IMG/VR virus record: IMGVR_UViG_3300020577_007233
Location: 189,593 to 253,592 of that record
DNA: 64,000 nt
DNA from: a virus
Taxonomy: Duplodnaviria; Heunggongvirae; Uroviricota; Caudoviricetes
Strand: one strand, 5' to 3'
Numbering within the stretch: the stretch's first letter is position 1; each line of letters begins with the position of its first letter. The notes beneath the pieces are model-generated. The model saw only the letters and a list, made by a program, of their open reading frames with translations, was not told the origin of the DNA and did not search any database. Below, piece after piece: positions 14,782 through 64,000 of the stretch. The position numbers were made by a program, and so were the translations under genes.

Positions 14782-15636
14782 TCACGACTGAAGTATAGCC
14801 TCCAAATCGCTCATGTACGAGGGATTGAGTGCCACTTTTTTCTGCAAACGCTCAAGAATCTTTGCATGCATTTGGCTTATTCTGGATTCAGAATAACCAG
14901 TCTTTTCTGCAATCTCTTTCATGGTCATATTTTCGTAATAGTGCATGTGAACGATTTTGCGCTCAAGAGGAATGAAATTCCTTCCCATCAACTTCTTGAA
15001 CATCTCTTCTTTGACAACGCTACCGAGAGGCTGCTCTTCGCTAGACTCATAGCTCTCAATCTGAAGTTCTTCACCGTCTTCTTTACCTGAAGAATTGCTG
15101 TAGATGCTCACACAAGAAACAGGATTAGCCTTTGCCTCTATCTCCGTAAACTCTTCCAGCGTCATGCCAAGATGGTTAGCCATCTCTTCGGAAGTTGGAA
15201 TTCTTCCAAGATCGCACTCTAAGGCATGGCGAGCCTTTTGCAGCTTGTTGTGTCTTTGTCTAACAAGACGAGGAACCCAGTCAACCTGTCGAATGTTGTC
15301 AAGTATAGAACCCTTGATTCTATGAATTGCAAAGGTTTCAAACTTATTCTCAAGGGTTGGATCGAAACGATCAATAGCATGAAACAGACCGTCAGTTCCC
15401 CATGCAACCAGGTCGTCGATATCAACCTCTCTAATCTTCTTGTGCATCCTGTCAGCCACCTTGCTAACAAGTGGGTAGTACAGTTCGAGTAGTGAGTTTC
15501 TGGCTTTCTCGTAGTCTTTTTGTGACTTCTTGTAATCTTCAGTTTCTTTCACAGAATCAGAGGCGTTTTTGTCAAACTTGTTTCTAATCTCGACGAAGTT
15601 ATTCCACTTCGTCTTGAGTGCTTCGTTACTTATCAT
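14782..15636 (-). CDS. Sigma-70 family sigma factor (FliA/sigma-28-like)
   Basis: Region 2 (DLVAWGTDGLFHAIDRFDP...FETFAIHRIKGSI) and region 4 helix-turn-helix (TMKEIAEKTGYSESRISQMHAKILERL). Confidence 0.8.
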   Translation of the reverse strand: MISNEALKTKWNNFVEIRNKFDKNASDSVKETEDYKKSQKDYEKARNSLLELYYPLVSKVADRMHKKIREVDIDDLVAWGTDGLFHAIDRFDPTLENKFETFAIHRIKGSILDNIRQVDWVPRLVRQRHNKLQKARHALECDLGRIPTSEEMANHLGMTLEEFTEIEAKANPVSCVSIYSNSSGKEDGEELQIESYESSEEQPLGSVVKEEMFKKLMGRNFIPLERKIVHMHYYENMTMKEIAEKTGYSESRISQMHAKILERLQKKVALNPSYMSDLEAILQS

Positions 15637-15704
15637 TCTAACGTCCTTTCTTGTTTCAACCGCTTAAGTATACAACGTTTGCGCTACACTATATTGCTTT
15701 GATT

Positions 15705-16769
15705 TCAACCCAATATCGTCTTGGGAGAGGCAGTCGCCACAGGAACCGTAGCGGTTACTACTACGGGTGCAGAAGGAACCGTCGCTGTGGAAGACGGATT
15801 TACTAGTGCGGGAACTTGAATTATAGAGGGCGATGGAGCTAAGCCATAACCTCTCTTGGTTTTATCAAGTGAACGAACTCTGTTCACAAGTTGCATTGTG
15901 GCACCAGACTGAATCTGGTGAGCAACGCCTGGCTCGACTGCGTTACCAAATATCTTCTCTCTAACGGTTGGAGGAAGATAGGTCTTAGCAACTTCACCAG
16001 TATGAACAAGTTCCTTGACGGCTGTATCCCTGTTCTTGATCTGAAAGAATACATAAACAACGGCTCCTAGGAAACCTAAGCCAAGGACGGCCAAAGCAAC
16101 CCAAGCAATCTGTTGTAGGTAAAGAGTTACAGCAACAGCTATACCCATAGTCGCAACGCAACCGGCGGCAACCATAAAGGCTGCTGGTGTCTTGAAAAAG
16201 AAGCCTATAACCAAGCTAGCTCCTATACCTATAACACAAACTACAACAATCCATGACAGCATAGTTCTCAACATCTTCGCATTGGAAGATTCCAATTCTT
16301 TGATCTTATCTTGGAGCTTTTGCCTCTGAGTTTCTGATTCTTTGGCAAAGGCGGTATAGTTCTGAATCTTTTGTTGCTGCTCTAGTAACTGTGTTTGTGT
16401 ATCTTTGAGTTTCTGTTCGACAGCAATAAGAGTGGCCGAATCTTCTCTTAAACCTTTCGTTTCTGTTCTTATGCCCGAGATTTCGGGGCCAAAAACTTCC
16501 TTGGTTTCAGGTGGAGCTTTGGTTTCGATGTTCGTTGTATGCTCATCAATTTTTTCGGCTCTAGTTGCTACATCCTTTCCTGTTTCACCAACGGTCTTGG
16601 CCGCTTCACCAACCTTCTCTCCTTCCTTCAATACGGTTGGAGTTTCAGGTGGGGTTTTTGTTGAACTTGTGTTGTCACCAGAACTTGTGCATGATGTGAT
16701 AACAAAACTCCAACTCATAACAGTCAAAAAGATTGCTATGCCCCAAAAAAGCTTACTTGCGTTCGTCAT
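15705..16769 (-). CDS. Membrane protein with N-terminal signal/lipoprotein-like segment, coiled coil and several TM helices
   Basis: Hydrophobic N-terminus ending ...VITSC. A Q/E/K-rich coiled coil is followed by three or four hydrophobic segments. Confidence 0.5.
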   Translation of the reverse strand: MTNASKLFWGIAIFLTVMSWSFVITSCTSSGDNTSSTKTPPETPTVLKEGEKVGEAAKTVGETGKDVATRAEKIDEHTTNIETKAPPETKEVFGPEISGIRTETKGLREDSATLIAVEQKLKDTQTQLLEQQQKIQNYTAFAKESETQRQKLQDKIKELESSNAKMLRTMLSWIVVVCVIGIGASLVIGFFFKTPAAFMVAAGCVATMGIAVAVTLYLQQIAWVALAVLGLGFLGAVVYVFFQIKNRDTAVKELVHTGEVAKTYLPPTVREKIFGNAVEPGVAHQIQSGATMQLVNRVRSLDKTKRGYGLAPSPSIIQVPALVNPSSTATVPSAPVVVTATVPVATASPKTILG

Positions 16770-53358: not shown

Positions 53359-54219
53359 CTAACTAAAAATGTCATACACATCTTTAGAAGATTCTGTATC
53401 AAATCTTTCTTTCCAATGAAGCATCGTATGACAGTTATGACAGAGAACGTCACATTTATTAATTTCTTGTTGTATAGATTTTATGCTTTTGCCTTTTGCC
53501 ACTAATCTTCCTATTTCACTTGTTTTCTCTTTGGGATCTCGATGGTGAAAACATAAAACAGCCGGATGACTTTCTCCGCAGTCTTTACAAGGATGGTTAA
53601 GTTTGTATTCCCAAATATATTCCATTGCTTTATATTTTCTTCGAGTTAGGTTTTTTCGAATATCTAGTTTTTTGTTTTTGCATACTTGTTCTATTGTAGG
53701 AACTGAACTTTTTAACTTATTTTGCCTCTTTTTGAAATAATAGTGCTGAGCATTAGTGTACTTGTATTGCGTCTTCAAAAATGTTTGTTTCTCAAGTTCT
53801 TTGATTTCCGATAAGAGTCTTTCTTTTTCTTTTAGCCGACTCTCATGTTGTTCTAGAAAAATAGATTCTTGTTTATCTCTAAGATTTTCTATTTCTTTTC
53901 TTATTATTTCTTGCTCTAATTTCCGTTTTGCTTCGTTTTGTAGATTGATTTTCTGATTTTCTAATTCTACTAACTCACTTTGTTCTTTTTGAGCCTTTTC
54001 AAGATTCTTTAATAGAAGATCATATCGTTGCTGATTTTCTTCGCTCATCCCTTCGAGGGATATCTTTTTGATTTCTCTTCTAATAGAACCAAGATATTGT
54101 TCTAAGCGATATCTTTCTTTATTCTGAGACCGCCATTTTTTCTTGTATTCTCTTTGTTTTTGTTTATCTTTGTATGGCATATAGCTAGTTATCGTGTGTT
54201 TTACTATTCTACGTTTCAA
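53359..54219 (-). CDS. HNH endonuclease with K/E-rich coiled-coil N-terminus
   Basis: C-terminal CKDCGESHPAVLCFHHRDPKEK...CDVLCHNCH. A TTG start is inferred. It sits at the composition boundary. Confidence 0.7.
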   Translation of the reverse strand: MKRRIVKHTITSYMPYKDKQKQREYKKKWRSQNKERYRLEQYLGSIRREIKKISLEGMSEENQQRYDLLLKNLEKAQKEQSELVELENQKINLQNEAKRKLEQEIIRKEIENLRDKQESIFLEQHESRLKEKERLLSEIKELEKQTFLKTQYKYTNAQHYYFKKRQNKLKSSVPTIEQVCKNKKLDIRKNLTRRKYKAMEYIWEYKLNHPCKDCGESHPAVLCFHHRDPKEKTSEIGRLVAKGKSIKSIQQEINKCDVLCHNCHTMLHWKERFDTESSKDVYDIFS

Positions 54220-54395
54220 TCTTCACACTAATAGGAAAAAGGCCGTAGCTGTGTATACTTTAGGCTACCACTGGCGAATATAGATATCTTACTTTTCCTG
54301 AAGACCCCCCCTATGGGGTACGGGGTACTCCTTTTATCATTATGAGTGGGAAATAACAACTCCCATTCTTCCACTGCGCCAGGCCCCCACCCCTC

Positions 54396-54578
54396 CTAAG
54401 AAAGTCTAGCCCTTCTTAAGCTGCTCCTCAGTTCCTTAAGCTTTGCCTTGAACTTGGCATGGATGGATGGGTCATCCTTGCAGCCTGCGTATCCGCCAGC
54501 GGCAACGTCTCTGCGCCATTGCGAGTAGTCGTCCTCTGTCTTATCAATCTGCTGTTGGATGGTCATGGGCTTGTTCAT
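54396..54578 (-). CDS. Small hypothetical protein (60 aa)
   Basis: Minus ORF directly downstream of motif copy 54597. Confidence 0.45.
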   Translation of the reverse strand: MNKPMTIQQQIDKTEDDYSQWRRDVAAGGYAGCKDDPSIHAKFKAKLKELRSSLRRARLS

Positions 54579-54685
54579 ACCTACAACCTTTGCGCAGAAA
54601 GTCTAGCCTCCTTAACTTGGTACGGAACCCATACCCTTGCGGGCTAGGTTAGGTTGGCTCAACCCTTTACCCGTACCGTGCGCCG

Positions 54686-54892
54686 TTAGCCCTTCTTGGG
54701 CTTTGTTACCTTGAGGCTGATGCGTCCCTTGTTGTTGGAGGCGAAGGCGAGGACTCGGTTGAGCATATGGTTGGCCTTCTTCCAACCGGCGACTCGGACA
54801 ACATCATCGACTTCGAGGGAAACGTCGATGTTAAGACGAGTCTGCTTGCTTGAGCGGGACTTGGTTGCCTTGACTGTTTTGGTTGCTGCCAT
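54686..54892 (-). CDS. Small basic protein (68 aa), possible DNA-binding
   Basis: Downstream of motif 54911, after an AAGGA RBS. Confidence 0.45.
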   Translation of the reverse strand: MAATKTVKATKSRSSKQTRLNIDVSLEVDDVVRVAGWKKANHMLNRVLAFASNNKGRISLKVTKPKKG

Positions 54893-54916
54893 GTTCCTTG
54901 TTTCCTTTGAGGAAGT

Positions 54917-55405
54917 CTAGCCCTCAACCCAATACGCTCGGCTGCTTTCGGTGACGTAGTTATTTTCCGTCATCTGCCAAGCCTTTCCATTGTGACGAAT
55001 GGAGTTTGTAAAGTATTTCGGCTTGTTGTTTTCGTCGAGGATGGCGATGCTGTAATCGCCAGCGGTCTTGGGAGGGTCAGTAAAGACGCAACGAAGTTTT
55101 GCCTTGAAACTGACAGGCTTGTAGGCTTTCTTCTTTCTCGGCTTGTCCAGCCGAACGAGGTCGGTAAAGACTTTGCCGTAGGGAAGGGGAGGATGGCCCT
55201 CCTTGTCGGTCGGAGCCTTGACTGAGGCGACAACCGCATACTCCTTAATATGACGATTGTAGGCTTCCCATTGCTTTGCGATTTCGGTTGCTTCGGCAAT
55301 GGTTTTTGGTTCTGGACCGCTGGGGCCAAAGTTGCCCTGCCAAGTTCCATCAACTTTGTTGCCGTTCGTTTTTTCGACTTCGATGATGGAGTAGTTCATG
55401 TTCAT
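54917..55405 (-). CDS. Hypothetical protein (162 aa)
   Basis: Downstream of motif 55418. Its TAG stop is the CTAG core of motif 54911. Confidence 0.5.
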   Translation of the reverse strand: MNMNYSIIEVEKTNGNKVDGTWQGNFGPSGPEPKTIAEATEIAKQWEAYNRHIKEYAVVASVKAPTDKEGHPPLPYGKVFTDLVRLDKPRKKKAYKPVSFKAKLRCVFTDPPKTAGDYSIAILDENNKPKYFTNSIRHNGKAWQMTENNYVTESSRAYWVEG

Positions 55406-55428
55406 TACGAAGGGTCAGGAAGTCTAGC

Positions 55429-55557
55429 CTACCGCTGAGAGTTCTTGGGCTGCCGCTGCTTGTTGCGTTCTCTCCGCCGTTCGTTCCTCCGCTGTTTGCG
55501 CTCTTGTTCGGCTGCCCAGCGTTGGATGGCGTTCGCATCTCTTTCAAAGTCGCTCAT
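55429..55557 (-). CDS. Small Arg/Gln-rich protein (42 aa)
   Basis: Hand translation gives MSDFERDANAIQRWAAEQERKQRRNERRRERNKQRQPKNSQR. It lies downstream of motif 55576. The 65-aa ORF listed in the track is in another frame and crosses a motif, so it was rejected. Confidence 0.35.
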   Translation of the reverse strand: MSDFERDANAIQRWAAEQERKQRRNERRRERNKQRQPKNSQR

Positions 55558-55637
55558 GCTTATGAGTTGTTGTTAGAAAGTCTAGCCTTGTTAAATGACA
55601 AACCCCCTTACGGGGGTTGTTTGGGGTTGGGGTTGAC

Positions 55638-56006
55638 TTAGGCGACCGCTGCCGCTTTGGGCTTGGGCGGGAGGCTGATGCGCCCGCCGCGACGGATGAC
55701 GTAGGGGATGGGGCTGTCGTTGGGGACGGTGATGCCGTAGATGCTGCTGAGCATCCCAGTCGCCTGCTTGTCGCCGCCGAGGTCGCGGATGGTCTTGGCG
55801 GCGATTCGGATGGTCTGGCGAGTGCCGCTGGCGATGGTTGCGCGGCCCTTGGTCATGATCGTTCCGATGAGGCTCTTGACTTCGGCATCGGAGAGGTTGG
55901 GGTTGGCGGCGCGGACGGCGTTGATAGCGAAATCGACGCTGTGGATGCTGCTATTGAGGATGGTGAGGGTGAAGGGCTTGGCGGTCTTCTTGGTCTTGGT
56001 CGTCAT
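55638..56006 (-). CDS. Hypothetical protein (122 aa)
   Basis: RBS AAAAGGAAAC. Downstream of motif 56071. Confidence 0.5.
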   Translation of the reverse strand: MTTKTKKTAKPFTLTILNSSIHSVDFAINAVRAANPNLSDAEVKSLIGTIMTKGRATIASGTRQTIRIAAKTIRDLGGDKQATGMLSSIYGITVPNDSPIPYVIRRGGRISLPPKPKAAAVA

Positions 56007-56087
56007 TGGGCGTTTCCTTTTCTTTGTTAGGGGCGAGGCATTCGTCCCTTATGGCTCTTGGAAGTTGCGAGAAAGTCTAGCCTTGAA

Positions 56088-56381
56088 TTACCCCTGCCTC
56101 AAACTGAGTTGAGGGATAACAATGCGGCTGGCGATGGCGGCTGTTTCCTTGACGATGTGCCGAGTTCCCTTAAGTTCGGCTGTCTTGGAGTTGCCTTCGA
56201 GTTGGCGGTTCTGCTTGGCGATTCTGCGCCCGAGGGTTTGGGGCGTAACTTCGTTGACCTTGAAGAAACGGCGAGCGTTGCCTTGCCGTTCTGCTTCTTC
56301 ATCGAGGGAATCGAGGCCGCTACCCTTTTGGGCTGCGGCTCGTTGACGGTTGAGGTTGCGGAGGGCTTTTTCGTTGAACAT
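56088..56381 (-). CDS. Hypothetical protein (97 aa)
   Basis: RBS AAAGGA. Downstream of motif 56416. Confidence 0.5.
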   Translation of the reverse strand: MFNEKALRNLNRQRAAAQKGSGLDSLDEEAERQGNARRFFKVNEVTPQTLGRRIAKQNRQLEGNSKTAELKGTRHIVKETAAIASRIVIPQLSLRQG

Positions 56382-56461
56382 TGGGCTGGTCCTTTCTGCT
56401 GCCTATTTCTGGCGAGAAAGTCTAGCCTTGCCTTTCGGCAACGATGAAAGCCTTGCCTTTG

Positions 56462-56950
56462 TTAGCCCTTTGCCTTGCCGACCTTGACCACCTTGAGGAG
56501 AAAGCGAGCGCGACGGCCTGCGTGCTGTCCAGGCTTGCGGTTGAAAACGATGTCGGCCCTTGCCTTGCTCATGCCAGCATCGCGCCGCTTCTTGCGGTTG
56601 ATGACGGTTTGCTTCTTGATGGGGGTGATGCTGATGGGGTGGCCGAGGTCGAACACCGTACCGGCGGCTTCGGGCTGTCCTGCGTCAAACTGCTTGGCGG
56701 ACACAAACTGCTGAGCGTTGGGCGAGAAAACGAGGCGGTGGCCGTTGGCGATGGCTCGGATTTCGAGGCGGTCATTCTGAAAGACGACGGGATCTCCGTA
56801 GCCAGCGAGGCGCATGCCTTCGGCGTGTTGGCAATGCCGAGGGTCTTGGAGTTTGCACTCCTTCGCATCGGGCAGCGAGTAGAGGCGAGGCATCTTCTTG
56901 TTGCCCACCTTGAAATACTTGTGCTTGGGATTGGGCTTGGTCGTGGTCAC
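56462..56950 (-). CDS. Basic hypothetical protein (162 aa)
   Basis: GTG start with an AGGA RBS. Downstream of motif 57003. Confidence 0.45.
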   Translation of the reverse strand: MTTTKPNPKHKYFKVGNKKMPRLYSLPDAKECKLQDPRHCQHAEGMRLAGYGDPVVFQNDRLEIRAIANGHRLVFSPNAQQFVSAKQFDAGQPEAAGTVFDLGHPISITPIKKQTVINRKKRRDAGMSKARADIVFNRKPGQHAGRRARFLLKVVKVGKAKG

Positions 56951-57008
56951 TTCTTCTGTCCTTTCATGGAATGGGGTTGACGATGGGGCTTGTTATTTGC
57001 GCGAAAGT

Positions 57009-57431
57009 CTAGCCGATTGCCTGTGCCTTGCGTGCTTCGTATTCCTCTTTGGCCTTCACCCACTTGTCGAGGGTTTCGATTGCTGCCTCTGGCACGCCTT
57101 CGCGGAAGTTGTCTGACCAAAGGCGGCAATACGCTCCGTCGCTGTATTCGCTGAGGCCAATCCATTGAACGTGGTTGTTCTCATCGAGGAACATGCAACC
57201 ACCAAAGCGGCTGAATGTGCTTGCCTTGGGCTTGTTCCAAACTTCGCCTGCCACCTTGGGGTTGGTTGTCTGGCTCCAGAATCGCACGCCCTTGTTGGGG
57301 CTGTATTCGAGCCAGTACCGAATCTTGCAGCGAAGTCGGAACCCAAAGGGGTAATCATCGACGACGTATGCGGTTTCGGGTGAGATGTGTCCCTTGAGGA
57401 GTTTCGTGACGGTTGGGAGGGTATTGGGCAT
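57009..57431 (-). CDS. Hypothetical protein (140 aa)
   Basis: Downstream of motif 57449. Its stop TAG lies inside motif 57003. Confidence 0.5.
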   Translation of the reverse strand: MPNTLPTVTKLLKGHISPETAYVVDDYPFGFRLRCKIRYWLEYSPNKGVRFWSQTTNPKVAGEVWNKPKASTFSRFGGCMFLDENNHVQWIGLSEYSDGAYCRLWSDNFREGVPEAAIETLDKWVKAKEEYEARKAQAIG

Positions 57432-57454
57432 GGTTCTTGTTTCTTGCGCGAAAG

Positions 57455-57586
57455 TCTAACCCTGCCTTGCGCCTCTGCGATTGAGGAGTTCGGTTGTGAT
57501 GGCGAGCATGGCCTCAACGTCGCCTTCCATCTTGGCGAGTTCGTAGGCATCGCGGAGGTGATTGAACGTCATTTGGTCGAGTCGCA
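57455..57586 (-). CDS. Small protein (43 aa)
   Basis: Hand translation gives MRLDQMTFNHLRDAYELAKMEGDVEAMLAITTELLNRRGARQG. The stop TAG lies inside motif 57449. Downstream of motif 57627. Confidence 0.35.
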
Positions 57587-57844
57587 TGGGTCGAGTCCTT
57601 TCGTTGTTACATATAATAAGTTGCCAGAAAGTCTAGTCGTTGGCGGCTCGGAGAGTTCCACTCATAACGATTACCGCTAGTTAAGCTCAACAAGGCCCTC
57701 AAAGGGCCTTGTGAGCTGCCGTTGGATGATTCGCTTGTTTGGTTGGGGTTAGTTCTGTTTCATGGTTTGTTCTCCCTTGGTTTGTCGGAGTTGACTTGTC
57801 TGATGACTCTTAACAAGGGGCTGAAAGTCTAGCCCCCTTGTCTC

Positions 57845-58195
57845 TTACCATCCGAGTTCCTTCGGGCGGTTGGTATTCTCTACCCTCTTGCGTTGGGGCT
57901 GAGGGTTGCGATTCTGAGCGGCGGCAACCGCTGCGCCGAGGAATCCTTCGATATTGGCGACGCGCTGGCCGAGTTCTTCGGCATCCTTCTTCTTCTTCCG
58001 TTCGTCCATGATAGCGTTCATGGCGAGGGAGCGAAGTCCTTGCGCTTCCGCCCGTTCCAACAAAACTCGTTCGAGTTCTGTCAGTTCGTCGTAGGCGAGG
58101 AATTGTTGGGGGGCTGGCTTGTCCAGACCGCCGTATTGTTCGGCGGCAAGGATGAGCATGGGGTCCATTCGACGGAGTTGGTTGGGGTTGGGCAT
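57845..58195 (-). CDS. Hypothetical protein (116 aa)
   Basis: Downstream of motif 58214. Confidence 0.5.
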   Translation of the reverse strand: MPNPNQLRRMDPMLILAAEQYGGLDKPAPQQFLAYDELTELERVLLERAEAQGLRSLAMNAIMDERKKKKDAEELGQRVANIEGFLGAAVAAAQNRNPQPQRKRVENTNRPKELGW

Positions 58196-58232
58196 GACTC
58201 TTATTTCCTTTGGGAAAGTCTAGCCCTTCGAT

Positions 58233-58526
58233 TTAACGACCTGCTTTGGCTTGGATGCGGACGTTGTAGAAGTTGCCCTCTCGTTGGTCGCTCTGTACGT
58301 TCCCAAAATGAACGATCCAATTCCTCTCGTCAAACTCCTTGACAGTCCTTCTGATGACTCTCTCATTGACAAGGGAAGTGGCAATGGTTGTATCTACCGT
58401 GCTGCCAGTAACGTATTGGCGAGTGAGAGTCTGAATGAGGGAATCGACCACCTTGACGAACATGGCTTCGTCTTGGTCTTGCTGAATCTTGTCGAGTTTG
58501 CTTGGCGTTGGGATGTTGATGTTCAT
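58233..58526 (-). CDS. Hypothetical protein (97 aa)
   Basis: Translationally coupled to the upstream gene. Confidence 0.45.
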   Translation of the reverse strand: MNINIPTPSKLDKIQQDQDEAMFVKVVDSLIQTLTRQYVTGSTVDTTIATSLVNERVIRRTVKEFDERNWIVHFGNVQSDQREGNFYNVRIQAKAGR

Positions 58527-58714
58527 TAGATTCTCCCTGTTGCAGTAAACTCCACCTTGAGGCCGTTAGAAAGGGTCACGATGCCCTCAAGGGCTGCTGC
58601 GAACGATGAGGGATGAAGGTTGCGAGAGTTGTTGCACTTGCTGCATGGTCCTCCCTTGAGGCCGCTGTGCTTGCCGCAGTCTTTCTTAACAAGTTTGATG
58701 GGCGGTTGTTCCAT
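58526..58714 (-). CDS. Small Cys-containing protein (62 aa)
   Basis: CGKHSGLKGGPCSKCN. Downstream of motif 58733. Confidence 0.45.
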   Translation of the reverse strand: MEQPPIKLVKKDCGKHSGLKGGPCSKCNNSRNLHPSSFAAALEGIVTLSNGLKVEFTATGRI

Positions 58715-58771
58715 GCGTTCTACTTCTTGCGCGAAAGTCTAACCCTTGCGCAGTGGTGGCGCAGTGTTGCA

Positions 58772-59020
58772 TTACTGATTTGCTTCGAGTTGCGCCTTGT
58801 ACCGCTGAAAGTTGTGACGTTGTGTTGCTTGGGCTGCTCGGTACTCAACTTGACAACTGATGCAGCGAATCTCTGCGCTGCTTGTTCGTTCGAGTTTCTC
58901 AAAGGGCTGATGGCAGTCGTAACAAATGCCGACGATTCTTCTTGCGATGCAAGTATCGCAAGCAACAACGGTGGGGATTTCTTCCCCTTTGCAGAATCCG
59001 CATTTGTCGTTGCTGGGCAT
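58772..59020 (-). CDS. Cys-rich zinc-ribbon-like protein (82 aa)
   Basis: CGFC...CDTC...CYDCH...CISC. Downstream of motif 59039. Confidence 0.5.
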   Translation of the reverse strand: MPSNDKCGFCKGEEIPTVVACDTCIARRIVGICYDCHQPFEKLERTSSAEIRCISCQVEYRAAQATQRHNFQRYKAQLEANQ

Positions 59021-59044
59021 GACTCTATCTTCCGTTCTGGAAGT

Positions 59045-59356
59045 CTAGCCCTTGATGCGAATACTTCCCTTCATGCGTTCATCATCGCACCAACAACCGC
59101 AGACTCCTCCGCAACCTGGGCAACCACCCTTGATTGTGACATCGGCTTCGAGAGCGTAGGCTGCATTGCCGATGATTCGAGCGGTCTGATTCCAAATGGC
59201 TTGACTGGTGCCGTCAAGTTCCTTTGCTGACTTGTCCGAAACCATTTGGCAGGCTTTGGCAGTCGCCTTAAGCATGCGCTCGCCGTATTGCTCGATGAAA
59301 ACGAACATTGACAGAGCGAGTTCATCGTCGGAAAGTTGTTTGGGAGGGTTGGGCAT
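59045..59356 (-). CDS. Cys-rich protein (103 aa)
   Basis: GGCPGCGGVCGCWC. Its stop TAG lies inside motif 59039. Downstream of motif 59375. Confidence 0.5.
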   Translation of the reverse strand: MPNPPKQLSDDELALSMFVFIEQYGERMLKATAKACQMVSDKSAKELDGTSQAIWNQTARIIGNAAYALEADVTIKGGCPGCGGVCGCWCDDERMKGSIRIKG

Positions 59357-59390
59357 GGCTTTTACTTCCTGCGAGAAAGTCTAGCCCTTA

Positions 59391-59669
59391 TTAGTTGGGC
59401 ATCTTATGTCTTGCCGCTGCTGCGAGTTCAGGCGAGACAACGAATCCCATGCCAAGCCAGTTACGGTCGGCGAGAGAGGTGAACGCTTCCATCTTGGCCG
59501 CCTCAATTGGCCGCTTCTTCATTCGCTCAAAAGCGATCCAAATGCGCTTGATGGTTCGAGGAGTCGGTCGTTTGGGATGATGAAGCAGAGCGTAAACGTG
59601 GACGATGCTTGGCAGGTGCATCATGCGACGGATGCTCATGTTATTCGGATTGGGGCAGTCCGTTGTCAT
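59391..59669 (-). CDS. Hypothetical protein (92 aa)
   Basis: Downstream of motif 59687. Confidence 0.45.
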   Translation of the reverse strand: MTTDCPNPNNMSIRRMMHLPSIVHVYALLHHPKRPTPRTIKRIWIAFERMKKRPIEAAKMEAFTSLADRNWLGMGFVVSPELAAAARHKMPN

Positions 59670-59881
59670 TGCTTTTGTTTATTGAGCGAAAGTCTAGTCT
59701 TTGGGGCATTGGGCTGGAAGGACGTTCACTCATAATGATTACGATGTTTAAGTAGCCAGAGCGGCTTAGGGGCATTGAGTTCCCTATCCGCTGCTCCCTG
59801 CAATGCTCCCCTCGGAACGTGTCCGAGAGGCAGGTCGCCTGGCTTTTCCCATTGTAAGGCTTTGACCCGAAAGTCTAGCCC

Positions 59882-60070
59882 TTAGATTCTGTTTCCCTTG
59901 CTGTCGCAAGGTCCGAGCGTAACCCAATGAGCGTCGTAGGGTTGGGGCTTGACAAGGGGTGGCCCCTTCCAAGTTCCGTTCCTCCGTTGCTCCATCTCAT
60001 GCGCCCATGAGCCTTCGTAGCGGCTGATGGGTTCGTACTTGCCGTTCGGTTTCTTCTTTCCAAGTCCCAT
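59882..60070 (-). CDS. Small protein (62 aa; start moved to ATG at 60070)
   Basis: Starting at MGLGKKKPNGKY places the ATG 18 nt from motif 60089. The track's TTG start would be only 6 nt from the motif. Confidence 0.4.
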   Translation of the reverse strand: MGLGKKKPNGKYEPISRYEGSWAHEMEQRRNGTWKGPPLVKPQPYDAHWVTLGPCDSKGNRI

Positions 60071-60099
60071 GCTTCTTAACAAGGGTTGGAAAGTCTAGC

Positions 60100-60513
60100 C
60101 TACAGTTTGCTGACTCTTTCGCCGTCCCCAACGAGGTCGTACTCGGGAAATTCCTTGCTGAGTTTGGTAAGGCGTTCGCCGAGTTCGTTGGCTTCGAGTT
60201 CCCTTCTGTCCCAAAAGCCAGCCCCATGACCGTTGCGAGTGAGCCAAAAGTCGTGGCCGTACTGAGCGGCATCCGCTTCTTCGAGTTCCTCGGTGGTAAG
60301 TTCTTCGAGCATCATGGTTGCAAACTGAGCGCAGTCGGCAACCATATCAAAGTAAGTCGCCGGCTCGATATCATCGCCGTCGTACTGACCGTCCAAGTTC
60401 TCTGAGGTGGCTTGATCGCCTTCGTTGGTACTTGACCAAAGGGCGCAAACGATGTACGCCTTCACAAAGTTGTCAAACCAATTCGAGGGGTTGGAGTTGA
60501 AGTTCTTACTCAC
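60100..60513 (-). CDS. Acidic hypothetical protein (about 137 aa)
   Basis: Start inferred at a GTG that overlaps the upstream small gene's TGA (GTGA coupling). The 249-aa track ORF crosses motif 60708 and is treated as an artefactual extension. Confidence 0.4.
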   Translation of the reverse strand: MSKNFNSNPSNWFDNFVKAYIVCALWSSTNEGDQATSENLDGQYDGDDIEPATYFDMVADCAQFATMMLEELTTEELEEADAAQYGHDFWLTRNGHGAGFWDRRELEANELGERLTKLSKEFPEYDLVGDGERVSKL

Positions 60514-60689
60514 GCCTTCTCCCCTTCTGGCACGCCCGCCGCTTCGAGGAGTTCGGTATCGCTTGCGTCGATGTGCTTTGCGAGGGATTGGAGTTCCGAA
60601 AGTTCTCCGTAAGAGATACGTTCGGCTCGGAGTTCCTTGCGAAGATACTCCAATCTGTCTCGGATGCTTTGAGGGGTTGAGTTGGGCAT
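60510..60689 (-). CDS. Small protein (59 aa)
   Basis: Hand translation gives MPNSTPQSIRDRLEYLRKELRAERISYGELSELQSLAKHIDASDTELLEAAGVPEGEKA. The ATG is 18 nt downstream of motif 60708 with an AAAGG RBS. Confidence 0.4.
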   Translation of the reverse strand: MPNSTPQSIRDRLEYLRKELRAERISYGELSELQSLAKHIDASDTELLEAAGVPEGEKA

Positions 60690-60713
60690 GACCTTTATTT
60701 CTGGCGCGAAAGT

Positions 60714-61046
60714 CTAGCCGACGATGCTGGTGTATGCGTCTGGCTTGGTTTCGCCCTTCTTGCGCAAAAACCAACCTCTCGTTGAGATGTGGATGATTTC
60801 GTAACCCTCGGCAATCTGAGGGAAGGGGCGGTACTCGCCTTGCCACCATTCGTCATTACGAACGCATCCGCCGTTGTAACGGGTTGACCCATAGGCTGAG
60901 GGAATGGACGCTGATGACCCCATGTAACCCTTGCCGTAACCATCCCCAAAGGCGTTCTTAGGATTGGCTTTGGCAACCTTGGCGCATTTCGCTGCATCCC
61001 AAACCTCTTGCGGATGCTGAAACAATGGAAGGTTGGGGTTGACCAT
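60714..61046 (-). CDS. Gly/Tyr-rich hypothetical protein (110 aa)
   Basis: Downstream of motif 61065. Its stop TAG lies inside motif 60708. Confidence 0.45.
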   Translation of the reverse strand: MVNPNLPLFQHPQEVWDAAKCAKVAKANPKNAFGDGYGKGYMGSSASIPSAYGSTRYNGGCVRNDEWWQGEYRPFPQIAEGYEIIHISTRGWFLRKKGETKPDAYTSIVG

Positions 61047-61146
61047 GCTTAAGGATTTGCTGATGAAAGTCTAGCCGATTGCGTTGCACTCATAACGATT
61101 ATGGTCGCTTGTTATTTCCTTGCACTCATAACGATTTCGGTTAGTT

Positions 61147-61186
61147 AAAAGCCAAACGGCAAGGGATTCGTCCCTTACCGTTGGCT
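61147..61186 (-). terminator. Intrinsic terminator (hairpin plus T-run) preceding a promoter-like cassette
   Basis: On the minus strand the stem AAGCCAACGGTAAGGGA/TCCCTTGCCGTTTGGCTT is followed by TTTTAAC. Confidence 0.55.
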
Positions 61187-61223
61187 TGCCCAATGTTCGT
61201 TTGGAAAGTCTAGCCCTCGGCTT

Positions 61224-61949
61224 TCAGACCTTCATCATGCTGCGCTCGCCGATGAGGTACGCTTCGGCAATGTCCCAAATTCGCTCCCTCATTTCCATCG
61301 GACGCTCGGTAAAGTTGTCGGTAATCCGATACCGTTCGCCGCCGATGGCGATTTCGACGATGTTCTCAATACCGTAGACAACGAACCGAACCGCATCATC
61401 CCCAAGCCCCTGATTGGAGTAGTCGGAGCGAGGGGCAAGGTACGGCTCGACGTTTTCGGTCGGCTCGGTCGTTCCGTCCGCGAGTCGGAGATACTCGGGC
61501 GTTCCAACCGCCTTGAAGATGAAGCGGAGATAGGCCGCGCCGTCGTCGCCCTTGTCCTTCTTGTTGACGCTGAGGCAAGTCGGACCATCCTCGGCCATGA
61601 TAGGCCGATGCCATGATTCGCCCTTGCGGAAGCGGTCTTGAATTTCCGCCTCAAGTTCCTCGGCTGAGAGGGGGGCAAGGTTCGCCGCCGCCCGTTCCGC
61701 CTCAATCGCCTTTGCGAGTCGGTTCTCGACAACGCGCTCGTAACGGCCCGCGATGGTTCCGTTGACCTTTGTGACCTTGCCGATGGTCAAACCATCCTTC
61801 ATGGTACGGCCCGCCTTGAAGGGGTTGGGAAGGCCGTTGGTTCCGTTCGCCCTCGTATCGGGTTCGGTAACAACCACCATGCTGATGATGGTATTGGCGG
61901 TAACGCCAAGCAGAAGGGTTCGGAGTTGGTTGCGAGAGATGAGTTTCAT
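61224..61949 (-). CDS. Secreted hypothetical protein (241 aa, N-terminal signal peptide)
   Basis: Hydrophobic N-terminus. Downstream of motif 61987. Confidence 0.5.
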   Translation of the reverse strand: MKLISRNQLRTLLLGVTANTIISMVVVTEPDTRANGTNGLPNPFKAGRTMKDGLTIGKVTKVNGTIAGRYERVVENRLAKAIEAERAAANLAPLSAEELEAEIQDRFRKGESWHRPIMAEDGPTCLSVNKKDKGDDGAAYLRFIFKAVGTPEYLRLADGTTEPTENVEPYLAPRSDYSNQGLGDDAVRFVVYGIENIVEIAIGGERYRITDNFTERPMEMRERIWDIAEAYLIGERSMMKV

Positions 61950-62128
61950 TGGGCAGAGTTCCTTTCTGTCTACTGAAAGTTCCTTGAAAGTCTAGCCCCA
62001 AAGTTCATTGGTTGGGGTTGCTTTCGATGCTACTGGAAATTCCGTTGAAAGTCTAACCCTTGCGCCGAATCAGGAAGTTCACTCATAACGATTATGCTGC
62101 AATCATTATAGGTGAGATTGTTCGATGC

Positions 62129-62155
62129 AAAAACGAAAGCCGCAGTTGGCTTTCG
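62129..62155 (-). terminator. Strong intrinsic terminator immediately after motif copy 62156
   Basis: On the minus strand the stem CGAAAGCC-AACTGC-GGCTTTCG is followed by TTTTTGC. Confidence 0.65.
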
Positions 62156-62171
62156 GAAGTCTAGCCCTGTT

Positions 62172-62489
62172 TCAGCCAGCCGCAATGGTCGCTTCAAGGG
62201 GGACGTTTGGTGCGCCTGCTTCAATGGCGACGTTATCCCTCTTGGTCTGAATCTGCTCAACCTTGAGTTCGCAGAGTTCAAGATGCCCTCTCCAAACAAC
62301 CGCCTTACCTTTTTCGTGGACCTCGATGGTTGTTTTGACTGCATCCTTTTCGCTCATCTTGCAAACCTCCATGAGAAGGTTAGCAACGAAGTCGGGCGTA
62401 TGAACGTCGGAGTTCCAAAGGAGAACAACATGGGGAGGAAGATGGTCAACCTTGGTTTCGGTTGCTTGTTCAAGGGTTGCGTTGGGCAT
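62172..62489 (-). CDS. clpS: ClpS-like ATP-dependent Clp protease adaptor
   Basis: VVLLWNSDVHTPDFVANLLMEVCKMSEKDAVKTTIEVHEKGKAVVWRGHLELCELKVEQI is collinear with E. coli ClpS ([23 protein letters not shown]...[22 protein letters not shown]). Confidence 0.7.
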   Translation of the reverse strand: MPNATLEQATETKVDHLPPHVVLLWNSDVHTPDFVANLLMEVCKMSEKDAVKTTIEVHEKGKAVVWRGHLELCELKVEQIQTKRDNVAIEAGAPNVPLEATIAAG

Positions 62490-62559
62490 CTGATTCTTTT
62501 CGACATCGCCTATTTCGGCTCTGAAAGTCTAGCCGCCGTTTTTTTCCACATCGAAGTTC

Positions 62560-62950
62560 AGCGGTCTTGACTCCGCCTCGTCTTTTGGGGTCTTGCACAG
62601 TGCAAACAGTGTGAGTTCAGTGCCTCTTGTGTGCCTTTTGTGTGCAGTTCAGTGGTCCTTGCTGCGCCTGCCTCCGCCTCGGCTGCCTCGGAGCGGCTCC
62701 TCTTCTTTTGGGGTCTTTATGATCTTTCAAGATCGCCCTTGTTTTTGGGCCTTTTTGCACCTCGGAGGTGATCGTCTTTGGGGGTCTTGACGGTCAAATG
62801 ACCGCTTTGACCGCCATCTGATCCATGCTCTTTTGGGTCGTTGGACAAATCTATTTGTATCGGCTTCTGTTTGGGGGTCTTTGGTCTGGGTGCTGCTTCC
62901 CCGATCTTTCCGGGTTTGCCGGGTCTTTGACCCAGATCTGGGTCTCGTTT
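62560..62950. repeat. Non-coding iteron/palindrome region: about five copies of TTTGGGGTCTT plus two perfect palindromes (GATCTTTCAAGATC and GACCCAGATCTGGGTC); GATC-rich
   Basis: Iteron copies lie at about 62581, 62705, 62774, 62829 and 62867. The palindromes are at 62721-62734 and 62929-62944. At least six GATC sites fall within about 260 bp. No credible ORF is present. Confidence 0.6.
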
Positions 62951-63178
62951 ACCCTGCGACGGAAAAGGTCACTCATAACGATTATATGCTAGCGCAAACA
63001 TAAGGGCGGCTTGTTTAGGGCCGCCCGTTGATTCGTACCTCCCGATTCTCTTTCGGGTTCCGAATAGCAGAGTTCCGTCCGCTCGGGGTAACTAAGGCTC
63101 GCAACCATACACTGACCAGTCGCCCGGTCTATCCTGTTGCTTTTACCATTCCATGCCTTTTGTTTTCGGCGCGAAAGT

Positions 63179-63364
63179 CTAGCCGACTTTCAGAGTCAGA
63201 GGATGCTTGAATGAGGGGCGAGAAACAATCCGATTGGGCTTCTCGGCGTTCTGAACCTCAAGGGTTCCTCGGAGCCAAATGGGAACCTTTGAGTGAACGG
63301 TGGGGTTCTTGGGCCGCTGTGCGGCTTCTGCTGCTCTCTTGGCTTCTTTGCTTGCTCGGCTCAT
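63179..63364 (-). CDS. Small basic protein (61 aa)
   Basis: RBS AAAGGAAAAG. Its stop TAG lies inside motif 63173. Confidence 0.45.
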   Translation of the reverse strand: MSRASKEAKRAAEAAQRPKNPTVHSKVPIWLRGTLEVQNAEKPNRIVSRPSFKHPLTLKVG

Positions 63365-63520
63365 GGGCTTTTCCTTTTCAACAAAGGGCGAGAAAGGCGA
63401 GGACGCAGAGAACGAAACGGTCTCGGTTGCTCATGCTTATGACTTCTTACTTAGAAGTCTAGTCTCCTTAAAGCAGAGCGGAGGACCAACGGCCCTCTAC
63501 GCCCTGCTGCCCAAGTTTCA

Positions 63521-63709
63521 TTACCACTTCTTCGTGGCTGTCTGCTGAACGGTTGCCTTGTTGCCGTTGCTTCCGAACGCCTGCCTTGCTGCGTCGGCTG
63601 CGTTGTTCGCCCCAGTCACGGTCTTGGTTTGACCGCTGTGAGTGACTTGGAACGAGTTATGGGAACCTTGCTGCATTGGCTGGAACGGGGTGTTATTCGA
63701 GTTTGTCAT
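63521..63709 (-). CDS. Small protein (62 aa)
   Basis: Downstream of the double motif at 63728 and 63744. Confidence 0.45.
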   Translation of the reverse strand: MTNSNNTPFQPMQQGSHNSFQVTHSGQTKTVTGANNAADAARQAFGSNGNKATVQQTATKKW

Positions 63710-63748
63710 GCCTATTGAAATGACCCCGAAAGTCTATCCCCAAAAAGT

Positions 63749-63958
63749 CTAGCCCTGACTCTTGGTTGGCGTCAGAAGAAAAGGCTCGTTTGCTTCTTCA
63801 GGACGGTTGGGCCAAGAGCGAAGCCGCTTCATCTCAGGGTCGGCGTGCTTCAGATCCCAAACGCTCTTGGGGTCGATGGTGCCAGGGTAGGGCCAGTCGT
63901 TGGGACTGACGCCCCGCCACATTACCGCTGCCTTGCTGAAGCCTTGGCAGTAACCCAC
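63749..63958 (-). CDS. Small protein (69 aa as listed; N-terminus uncertain)
   Basis: Its stop TAG lies inside motif 63744. Confidence 0.4.
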   Translation of the reverse strand: MGYCQGFSKAAVMWRGVSPNDWPYPGTIDPKSVWDLKHADPEMKRLRSWPNRPEEANEPFLLTPTKSQG

Positions 63959-64000
63959 AAGGTCTTGGTAGGCATTGCGGTTGCCGCTGACTCGCTGAAT

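Follow-up and report, generated by a model that had tools for sequence, protein, structure and literature searches.

A 12-nt box at a fixed distance from the start codon in a small-gene array of a Caudoviricetes phage: a probable promoter module and a site of cassette gain and loss

The stretch analyzed here, called the window throughout, is 64,000 nucleotides long (positions 189,593 to 253,592 of the IMG/VR virus record IMGVR_UViG_3300020577_007233, Caudoviricetes). Its right-hand end is taken up by an array of small genes on the minus strand (Table 1), and almost every gene of the array is preceded by a 12-nt box, GGCTAGACTTTC as read on the minus strand. Querying the whole window with GAAAGTCTAGCC and allowing at most one mismatch returned 28 copies against a chance expectation of 0.35, and none of 100 shuffled sequences reached 28. 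All copies lie between 54400 and 63754 in a single orientation. Together with a degenerate 29th copy at 63453-63464, this amounts to 29 boxes in 9.35 kb, or about one per 320 bp. The looser core CTARACTTY matched 25 times, always on the minus strand and inside the block, and was absent from both strands of the other 54 kb. TAGACTT, which occupies box positions 4-10, was invariant in 28/28 copies. On the 5' side, where the coding sequence of the upstream gene still continues, conservation has a sharp boundary; toward the 3' side it declines by degrees. The first-pass annotation of this DNA had reported some 29 copies ahead of almost every gene, in one orientation and about once per 320 bp, and the count as well as the shuffled controls bear it out. 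The occurrence of the box is strongly non-random, and the observation is real.

Some details of that description had to be redrawn. The extended consensus GCGCAAGAAA, which had been ascribed to many copies, fits only about six or seven of them, and the array is longer than the 9.4 kb first assigned to it: a near-identical public contig (L041) adds at least 5.8 kb of further array with 12 more boxes past position 64000. Other details stood. Tandem copies were found at 63728/63743 and 61986/62047, and the box at 62155-62166 is followed by a hairpin (62155-62134) without a gene. The ends of the open reading frames (ORFs) also confirmed the seven genes whose TAG stop codon lies inside the box, with the position given as 57455 corrected to 57456. 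In-frame TAG stops were present in 7-8 of the 28 boxes, approximately the one third expected if tightly packed genes run to the first in-frame stop. Thus, the fusion of stop codon and box needs no special mechanism.

The regularity of the arrangement had been undersold by an earlier spacing of 12-50 nt between box and start codon. In 17 of the 29 cases an ATG begins exactly 18 nt past the 12-mer. The repeated unit consists of the box and a semi-conserved segment of 18 nt, 30 nt in total, and is referred to below as the module. Modules directly followed by ATG were assigned to class A and those lacking ATG at this position (+18) to class B. Positions given as -1 and +1 are the last base of the module and the base that follows it.

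The spacing was traced in relatives of the phage by means of a conserved 241-aa protein encoded in the array, for which a graded series of homologues with 98% to 45% identity was found. The DNA around four diverged homologues (L046, L048, L049, and L050; 48-67% identity in the shared protein) was compared. Each of the four carries a 20-kb array of small same-strand genes, and unbiased k-mer counting revealed per-gene boxes of the type CTAGACTT, CTAAACTT, or CACTGAC. The forward/reverse counts were 28/0 for the window box GGCTAGACTTTC, 47/0 for GACTAGACTT in L050, 54/0 for AACTAAACTT in L049, 39/1 for ACTAAACTTT in L048, and 69/5 for TCACTGAC in L046, the last lying at -31 to -24 and being counted as CMCTGA. 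When aligned on the ATG, the five boxes share the same place, at about -31 to -19, and have ACT(A/G)A at -29 to -25 in common. Spacing is thus kept while the box sequence varies with the lineage, which implies a functional constraint tied to the start position. Such lineage co-variation is typical of a co-evolving specificity or recognition factor and argues for one acting on the box.

The identical 12-mer was also present in two IMG/VR contigs (L029/L024 and L014; records IMGVR_UViG_3300020577_006613 and 3300033066_001508). The ATG again lies at +18, here in front of larger accessory genes, and in the segments compared no protein was detectably shared with the window or with the arrays. As a separate observation, one of these contigs (L024, 100 kb) carries two adjacent tRNA genes with the anticodon CUA (amber suppressors) at 5497-5648. 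They hint at recoding of TAG in that phage; the box holds a TAG that is used as a stop codon in the window array. Searches of INPHARED gave no match, neither by megablast with the block nor by tblastn with the 241-aa protein and a 916-aa protein of the window. No relatives of the 241-aa protein, and hence no hint at a host, were obtained from IMG/VR and GTDB genomes, and the motif strings were not found in the searchable literature.

The two classes differ in the way their start codons are marked. Class A accounted for 44/76 unique copies in the window group, 29/54 in L049, 25/39 in L048, and 29/47 in L050 (19 at +18 and 10 at +17). In independent gene calls, class A starts were ATG in 63/63 cases. 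GGAG or GAGG occurred in only 8/117 class A segments, and the mean energy of the duplex with the anti-Shine-Dalgarno (anti-SD) sequence was -2.7 kcal/mol for class A as compared with -5.5 kcal/mol for motif-linked genes at other spacings (independent gene calls). The rest of the phage has ordinary GGA-type SD sequences. A pyrimidine was found at -1 in 117/120 class A copies, and the first 21 nt past the ATG were G-poor (13%) and A+C-rich in all four lineages. The 89 copies without ATG at +17/+18, orphan boxes included, showed a related signature: position +1 was A in 61%, and position -1 was a pyrimidine in 70%, as compared with 27-37% at neighboring positions. By a strict pattern, a strong SD sequence (AGAAAGGAAC or ATAAGGAG) follows in 29 of these 89 copies, with a start codon no more than about 30 nt away. 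For class B genes of the window, the ATG is mostly located 15-21 nt beyond +18.

In the AT-rich L048, a hexamer of the type TAnnnT is found at -13 to -8 (with A at -12 and T at -8 in all 25 copies) and ends 7 nt before the ATG; by analogy, this position corresponds to the geometry of leaderless-gene promoters. Of the features of leaderless genes, starts restricted to AUG (116 ATG to 0 GTG/TTG at +17/+18 across lineages) and a scarcity of SD sequences were observed; the -10 hexamer is seen in L048 but only in partial form in the window lineage. Matches to the sigma-70 consensus promoter were not detected inside the array. A -35/-10 pair at 17-nt spacing is absent from the position-by-position profiles, and no conserved -35 element is seen in the window lineage.

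Modules are not confined to protein-coding genes. In L048, a complete module is followed by tRNA-Lys without an intervening ORF, and the next module starts 8 nt past that tRNA. Similarly, a module of L050 ends about 5 nt before a tRNA-like gene, again with no ORF in between. Within the window, the module at 63173-63184 precedes an ORF of only three codons. These cases fit a role in transcription and cannot be explained by a role specific to translation. The stretch after the three-codon ORF (62996-63154, minus strand) is about 150 nt long, ends in a terminator, and is conserved in L041-L043; it is a candidate small RNA, with a folding z-score of only -1.76 and no Rfam match. An Rfam search of the block and three relatives returned only tRNAs in the relatives plus one match at chance level. 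Independently of the modules, matches to the Rfam tRNA family of 139-148 nt that were not called by ARAGORN were noted at 1792-1930 of L048 and 15139-15286 of L050; possibly, these are tRNA genes of the arrays that an insertion or intron has split.

Comparison of the window with contigs that are 90-100% identical to it showed that genes come and go at the box. L042 contains an extra cassette, consisting of a box, 18 nt, and a gene for 78 amino acids, inserted exactly at the box 56071-56082. The same contig lacks the gene for a 162-aa protein between the boxes 55418-55429 and 54911-54922, and the junction lies inside GGCTAGACTTCC. Left of the box 63173-63184, one gene of the window is missing from L042, and a different one stands in its place in L041. 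Modules make up 11.6% of the sequence but contained six of the ten internal homology breakpoints (p = 3e-4). Identity at the junction extends over 13 nt, which is enough for homologous or microhomology-mediated exchange. The box is therefore a site of cassette gain and loss, and the array is hypervariable. The first-pass annotation had listed cassette boundaries of the PeSL type among the possible roles of the motif and had pointed to related genomes as the place to look for them; with the insertion and deletion junctions of near-identical variants inside the box, this suggestion holds.

We consider that the module is probably a promoter of one geometry or another. For the more specific proposal of a 30-nt lineage-specific promoter module with a leaderless start at +18, the chances appear about evenly balanced. 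According to this proposal, the box would span about -30 to -19 with its invariant TAGACTT core at -27 to -21, followed by a weak -10-like segment, and would be read by a phage-encoded factor. Transcription would start at the purine 18 nt past the box, so that the predicted 5' ends are either the A of the ATG or AUAAGGAG... In class A, about 60% of modules, the start base would coincide with the A of the ATG and yield a leaderless mRNA. In class B, the transcript would begin with A(U/G)AAAGGA... and carry a leader of 15-21 nt with a strong SD sequence. The transcripts of a few modules would be tRNAs or small non-coding RNAs. Efficient translation of a leaderless cistron requires that it stand at the 5' end of its own mRNA; each such gene would therefore need its own promoter box. 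The repeated boxes at the same time serve as crossover points at which cassettes of box, leader, and gene are inserted, deleted, and swapped. The phage-specific promoter or activator box proposed at the outset thus gains support from the existence of a 30-nt module, the pyrimidine(-1)/A(+1) signature, which persists at +18 where no ATG is present, the split with respect to SD sequences, the modules in front of tRNAs, and the constant position of a lineage-specific box. An over-represented, conserved, and oriented motif that differs from the host consensus, by which phage-specific promoters are recognized, is present here.

A second repeated element has to be taken into account. Motif 2 (TAATCGTTATGAGTG) occurs six times in the array, each time 9-35 nt past a terminator hairpin, and four of the six copies lie 10-27 nt before a box. 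It often has TTTAAC about 6 nt upstream and does not resemble a sigma-70 promoter. Its core TTATGAGTG is invariant in three lineages (window, L048, and L049) and always follows a terminator. The array edge of the window has an inverted copy, and so do L042-L044 and L049 at their array edge or close to it. Motif 2 may serve as a promoter at the operon level or as a regulator site. Two further observations concern its surroundings. A non-coding stretch of 430 nt (62540-62970, minus strand) extends from motif 2 to the ClpS module. Scattered over it, AAGACCCCAAAAGA (plus-strand reading TCTTTTGGGGTCTT) recurs about five times, perhaps as an iteron-like site or within an untranslated RNA. In L048, two copies of TGTGGATAAC, similar to a DnaA box, adjoin a tandem pair of motif 2 where the array ends on its downstream side (~15650-15740).

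The proteins of the window were searched for factors that might act on the box. About 40 ORFs were scanned against Pfam and/or PHROGs, among them 10 of 11 ORFs of at least 350 aa and 8 of 36 ORFs of 150-349 aa outside the array. Array proteins were ORFans in PHROGs and Pfam except for a ClpS homologue and one member of a PHROG of unknown function; the conserved 241-aa protein gave a confident structure model with only weak Sm/WYL-like similarity. Elsewhere in the window, ribonucleotide reductase, thymidylate synthase, SNF2 and UvrD helicases, a polyvalent ART protein, and HNH endonucleases are encoded. From the sigma-70-family factor listed in Table 1 it follows that the phage makes use of the core RNA polymerase of its host. 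Intrinsic terminators, SD sequences, the sigma factor, and ClpS indicate a bacterial host.

Several of these results weigh against reading the module as a promoter with a start at +18. The invariant TAGACT/TAAACT in the box itself fits TAnnnT, and in the window lineage positions -13 to -8 read RGAART (A at -11 in 41/47) and do not form a standard -10 element. About seven boxes are orphans, some of them immediately before terminators, and the orphan box past the gene for the 241-aa protein has a counterpart at the same place in L049. Neither an activator nor a cognate DNA-binding protein for the box was identified among the window proteins searched. A phage RNA polymerase, which the earlier annotation had suggested looking for, did not emerge either: no RNA polymerase family was found among the approximately 40 ORFs scanned, where a sigma factor is present instead, and the DxDGD (beta'-type) catalytic motif is absent from all ORFs of at least 150 aa in the 64-kb window. 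The 916-aa protein was considered as a hidden RNA polymerase and dismissed, as it had no sequence match in Pfam, PHROGs, or PDB and no DxDGD. Finally, motif 2, just upstream of the box, could be the real operon promoter.

The first of these points leads to a promoter of another geometry. TAGACT/TAAACT would then be the -10 element (TAnnnT), transcription would start about 7 nt later within the 18-nt segment, and class A mRNAs would have leaders of 12-15 nt with little or no SD sequence. Box positions 4 (T), 5 (A), and 9 (T) are indeed invariant in four lineages, L048 shows A (20/25) and G (24/25) 4-5 nt past the box, and, as is true of phage promoters with an extended -10 or a -10 alone (e.g. 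the T4 late promoter), a conserved -35 element is lacking upstream of the box. However, TAnnnT is missing from the L046 box (TCACTGAC) although the position of this box is unchanged, and pyrimidine(-1)/A(+1) is found at +18 and not 4-7 nt past the box. Moreover, such a promoter gives no account of the second hexamer of L048 (invariant A and T, 7 nt before the ATG), and conservation of the 18-nt segment extends to the SD-led class B, in which the segment would be nothing but functionless extra leader. This geometry therefore appears unlikely, although it deserves to be kept in mind. Readings as sigma-54 (-24/-12), Bacteroidetes -7/-33, or SPO1-type promoters were discarded, their consensuses being out of register by eye with the position profiles.

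Motif 2 as the true promoter is part of a different explanation, in which a phage repressor bound to the 12-mer at each gene boundary would block elongation or initiation and silence an early array. The asymmetry of the box, its approximately 30 copies in one orientation, its location in short intergenic spaces, and its occasional overlap with stop codons recall the stoperators of Cluster A mycobacteriophages (PMC9283540, PMC3203893). The order of terminator, motif 2, and box would suit such a system, and the extended L046 box contains the inverted repeat GATAG/CTATC. An operator gives no reason, though, for an exact distance of 18 nt to the ATG or for A(+1) and pyrimidine(-1) across lineages. 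The boxes are confined to the array and not dispersed over the genome (0 in the other 54 kb), a repressor or integrase was not found among the approximately 40 window ORFs searched (which include 10 of the 11 largest), and a module precedes a tRNA gene across a gap without terminator. We regard silencing by operators as improbable; a repressor acting at promoter boxes could be compatible with the favored promoter module.

The fixed distance to a pyrimidine|A junction might also reflect RNA processing. An endoribonuclease of phage or host would recognize GGCUAGACUUUC in polycistronic transcripts started at motif 2, which is available as operon promoter, and would cut at a fixed distance downstream, yielding monocistronic mRNAs that are leaderless or short-leadered as well as tRNA precursors. 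One box per cistron, also past the last gene of an operon, would be in line with this idea. In the window lineage, the box can pair with its own segment (GGCU/AGCC and CUUUC/GAAAG; z = -4.7 as compared with shuffled segments). This hairpin potential is not shared across lineages (z = +1.1 in L050, -1.65 in L049, and +0.15 in L048), and a conserved RNA hairpin was consequently rejected as the function of box and segment; the pairing in the window lineage may stem from shared cassette ancestry or constitute a lineage-specific extra layer of control. There was no Rfam match, no nuclease candidate was found in the window proteins searched, and the TAnnnT hexamer of L048 together with the purine(+1)/pyrimidine(-1) pattern are signatures of transcription initiation. 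A nuclease that recognizes 12 nt and measures off 18 nt to its cut has, to our knowledge, no precedent. A role in RNA structure or processing, the latter among the original candidates, is thus disfavored and seems to us quite improbable.

A translation-initiation element, comparable with the SAS repeats or the epsilon enhancer of T7 gene 10, would as RNA attract the ribosome, or a phage factor, to genes without SD sequence or hold it in place there. The lack of SD sequences in class A would fit, as would the fixed distance to the ATG, the restriction to ATG, the non-structural nature of the genes, and the stop codons sometimes found in the motif, all of which are shared with the SAS of Cluster K (PMC3203893). 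Yet the box of class B genes lies about 40 nt from an ATG that has its own strong SD sequence, complete modules stand before tRNA genes and the three-codon ORF, the box itself contains no SD sequence, and genes in the rest of the phage have ordinary GGA-type ones. Translational coupling through stop codons in the box, also raised in the first pass, was rejected, as about 7/28 in frame does not exceed the expected one third. A translational function of either kind is very unlikely.

No more convincing is a pure recombination site, i.e. the target of a dedicated site-specific recombinase on an integron-like platform without a role in expression: despite the same-strand cassette array, the crossovers inside the box, and GTTAGAC variants that match the integron core GTTRRRY, there are 0 inverse cores GTCTA[AG]C, RYYYAAC is not enriched (0.21 versus 0.18), no excess hairpin potential is seen upstream, all boxes share one orientation, so that an attC architecture was rejected, no integrase was found among the proteins searched, the 13-nt identity at the junction suffices for ordinary exchange, and such a site would not hold an 18-nt spacing to ATG over long divergence, all of which makes this explanation highly improbable. 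A combined function can be imagined, in which the phage maintains a cassette platform that is the mirror image of an integron: the genes would carry their own 30-nt module, the box would also be the target of dedicated recombination (site-specific or promoted by a box-binding protein), and one phage factor would both activate and shuffle dozens of host-takeover or anti-defense genes. We mention this as a long shot.

The favored promoter module was compared with known systems. T4-type PeSLs combine a near-consensus sigma-70 -35/-10 promoter with a stem-loop terminator (PMC2839356, PMC4122927). As with PeSLs, the motif of the array separates small genes, mostly ORFans, in hyperplastic regions; close relatives differ by insertions, deletions, and replacements with junctions at the motif, and its sequence differs between phage sub-lineages. 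Unlike PeSLs, the repeat has no sigma-70 -35/N17/-10 consensus, only about six hairpins accompany 29 boxes, and there is no excess folding energy beside the boxes; in addition, the conserved 12-mer is fixed 18 nt from the ATG and is denser, with approximately one per gene over at least 15-20 kb. The early promoter of AR9, AAATATATATTAT-N6-G(+1), is present in 41 copies and is used by the virion RNA polymerase of phiKZ-like jumbo phages (PMC5312081). AR9/phiKZ motifs and the box have in common that they are conserved, over-represented, and phage-specific, that they precede early genes at a fixed distance from the transcription start (a predicted start in our case), and that they were first found bioinformatically. 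The AR9 motif, however, is AT-rich and lies 6 nt from the transcription start, as opposed to 18 nt to the putative start here, and its 5' untranslated regions measure 26-491 nt, where 0 or 15-21 nt would apply to the array. Jumbo phages, furthermore, encode split beta/beta' RNA polymerases, none of which was seen among the window ORFs scanned, with the sigma factor in their stead.

PafBC-dependent promoters possess a -26 element at -23 to -28 and a -10 element but no -35, a mechanism termed 'sigma adaptation' that was compared by its authors with MotA/AsiA of T4 (PMC8635444). If +18 is the transcription start, the core of the box would similarly be located at about -28 to -21, a place comparable with that of the MotA box in T4 middle promoters, and TAnnnT of L048 is at the right place; the window lineage differs in lacking a canonical -10, and the sequences are unrelated (tGTCgg versus CTAGACTT). 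The SAS of Cluster K mycobacteriophages, whose function was never established, contains an AGGAG SD sequence and lies 3-7 bp from the start codon (PMC3203893). It resembles the box as an asymmetric repeat of 12-13 bp in one orientation in a non-structural region, with a bias for ATG and an upstream stop codon sometimes inside. The box, in contrast, has no SD sequence, is 18 nt away, and also precedes SD-led and tRNA genes. Cluster A stoperators are about 30 asymmetric 13-bp sites that occur genome-wide in short intergenic gaps, stand in no fixed relation to start codons, are oriented with transcription, and are bound by the immunity repressor (PMC9283540), whereas the box is confined to the array, where it keeps its spacing, and a repressor did not turn up among the proteins searched. 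In archaeal viruses, a virus-specific core-promoter motif precedes clustered small early or anti-defense genes and was used for their prediction (PMC11065993). Many small, poorly conserved, clustered genes share an upstream regulatory sequence in both cases; those promoters are of the TATA/BRE type, and the host here is bacterial. Judged by their defining features, the box module stands outside the PeSL, SAS, stoperator, and attC families; in the way it works it resembles phage regulatory cassettes and activator-box promoters.

The array also stands apart in composition. Its GC content of 51-55% compares with 38-45% in the rest of the window, a difference of about 11 points (0.53 versus 0.42), and its coding strand is T-poor (17.8% T). 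Array and flank were compared in the window, L048, and L049, and the arrays of L048 and L049 are likewise about 10 GC points above their flanks (0.39-0.43 versus 0.28-0.36 in L048). This shift is consistent across the three lineages and hence reflects neither recent horizontal transfer nor a chimera. L044 is 100% identical to the window across the GC junction down to 54122, and hence the junction is genuine and not an assembly chimera. A gene for an HNH endonuclease (53359-54219, minus strand) is located exactly at the junction between array and flank, and three independent Logan contigs, L042-L044, end in or just before it, which suggests that it is a mobile element present in some genomes only. 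The rest of the window resembles part of a large phage whose genome probably exceeds 100 kb.

Table 1. Coordinates of the features of the array, with the sigma factor encoded outside it
Feature	Position	Strand	Details
Array of small same-strand genes	54220..64000	-	GC 0.51-0.55; runs off the window end
Box GGCTAGACTTTT	63743..63754	-	Upstream copy of tandem pair; TAG is the stop of ORF 63749-63958
Box GGATAGACTTTC	63728..63739	-	Class A; ATG at +18; 62-aa ORF 63521-63709
Degenerate box GACTAGACTTCT	63453..63464	-	Class A; ATG at +18; hydrophobic mini-ORF of 18 aa
Box	63173..63184	-	ATG at +18; 3-codon ORF only; ~150 nt to terminator; TAG is the stop of ORF 63179-63364
Box	62523..62534	-	Class B; +1 = G; ATG 15 nt on; ClpS homologue 62172-62489
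Orphan box GGCTAGACTTCC	62155..62166	-	Runs directly into terminator hairpin 62155-62134
Box GGTTAGACTTTC	62047..62058	-	Upstream copy of duplicated unit; no gene of its own
Box	61986..61997	-	Class B; +1 = A; leader AGAAAGGAAC...; ATG 18 nt on; conserved 241-aa protein 61224-61949
Orphan box	61204..61215	-	Past the 241-aa gene; +18 is the first base of terminator hairpin 61182-61155
Box	61065..61076	-	Class A; 110-aa ORF 60714-61046
Box	60708..60719	-	Class A; 59-aa ORF 60510-60689; TAG is the stop of the upstream gene
Box	60089..60100	-	Class A; 62-aa ORF 59882-60070
Box	59869..59880	-	No clear gene; followed by hairpin 59796-59755
Box GACTAGACTTTC	59688..59699	-	Class A; 92-aa ORF 59391-59669
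Box	59375..59386	-	Class A; 103-aa ORF 59045-59356
Box GGCTAGACTTCC	59039..59050	-	Class A; 82-aa ORF 58772-59020; TAG is the stop of the upstream gene
Box GGTTAGACTTTC	58733..58744	-	Class A; 62-aa ORF 58526-58714
Box	58214..58225	-	Class A; 116-aa ORF 57845-58195
Orphan box	57823..57834	-	Within the loop of a GGGGCT...AGCCCC hairpin
Box GACTAGACTTTC	57627..57638	-	Class B; +1 = A; SD GAAAGGA; ATG 21 nt on; ORF 57456-57587
Box GGTTAGACTTTC	57450..57461	-	Class A; 140-aa ORF 57009-57431; TAG is the stop of the upstream gene
Box	57003..57014	-	Class B; +1 = A; SD GAAAGGA; GTG start; 162-aa ORF 56462-56950; TAG is the upstream stop
Box	56416..56427	-	Class B; +1 = A; AGAAAGGAC; ATG 16 nt on; ORF 56088-56381
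Box	56071..56082	-	Class B; +1 = A; leader ATAAGGGACGAATG...; ORF 55638-56006; site of the extra cassette in L042
Box	55576..55587	-	Class A; 42-aa ORF 55429-55557; directly after terminator 55618-55601
Box GGCTAGACTTCC	55418..55429	-	Class A; ORF 54917-55399; left crossover of the L042 deletion
Box GGCTAGACTTCC	54911..54922	-	Class A; 68-aa ORF 54686-54892; right crossover of the L042 deletion; TAG is the upstream stop
Box	54597..54608	-	Class A; 60-aa ORF 54396-54578
Orphan box	54400..54411	-	Last box; array edge
Intrinsic terminator	61155..61182	-	12-bp stem and T-run
Intrinsic terminator	62134..62155	-	
Intrinsic terminator	55601..55618	-	
Motif 2	62970..62984	-	After hairpin 63026-63004; before the 430-nt non-coding stretch
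Motif 2	62080..62094	-	After terminator 62155-62134; 21 nt before a box
Motif 2 (AAATCGTTATGAGTG)	61123..61137	-	First of tandem pair; after terminator 61182-61155
Motif 2	61087..61101	-	Second of tandem pair; 10 nt before a box
Motif 2 (TAATCATTATGAGTG)	59727..59741	-	After hairpin 59796-59755; 27 nt before a box
Motif 2	57659..57673	-	After hairpin 57710-57692; 20 nt before a box
Inverted motif 2 (TTATCATTATGAGTG)	54334..54348	+	Array edge
Sigma-70-family factor	14782..15636	-	Regions 2, 3, and 4; outside the array

If the promoter reading is correct, the module would represent a new and easily recognized class of promoters in an uncultured clade of large phages. The box would then predict a whole set of co-regulated accessory genes, probably devoted to early host takeover or anti-defense, and its lineage-specific variants allow a co-variation search for the cognate specificity factor. 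Natural variants allow the cassette junctions to be placed with nucleotide precision, and regulatory repeats drive cassette turnover in T4-type PeSLs as well. A bacterial virus would, if the leaderless starts are real, have largely given up operons in favor of one leaderless transcription unit per gene.

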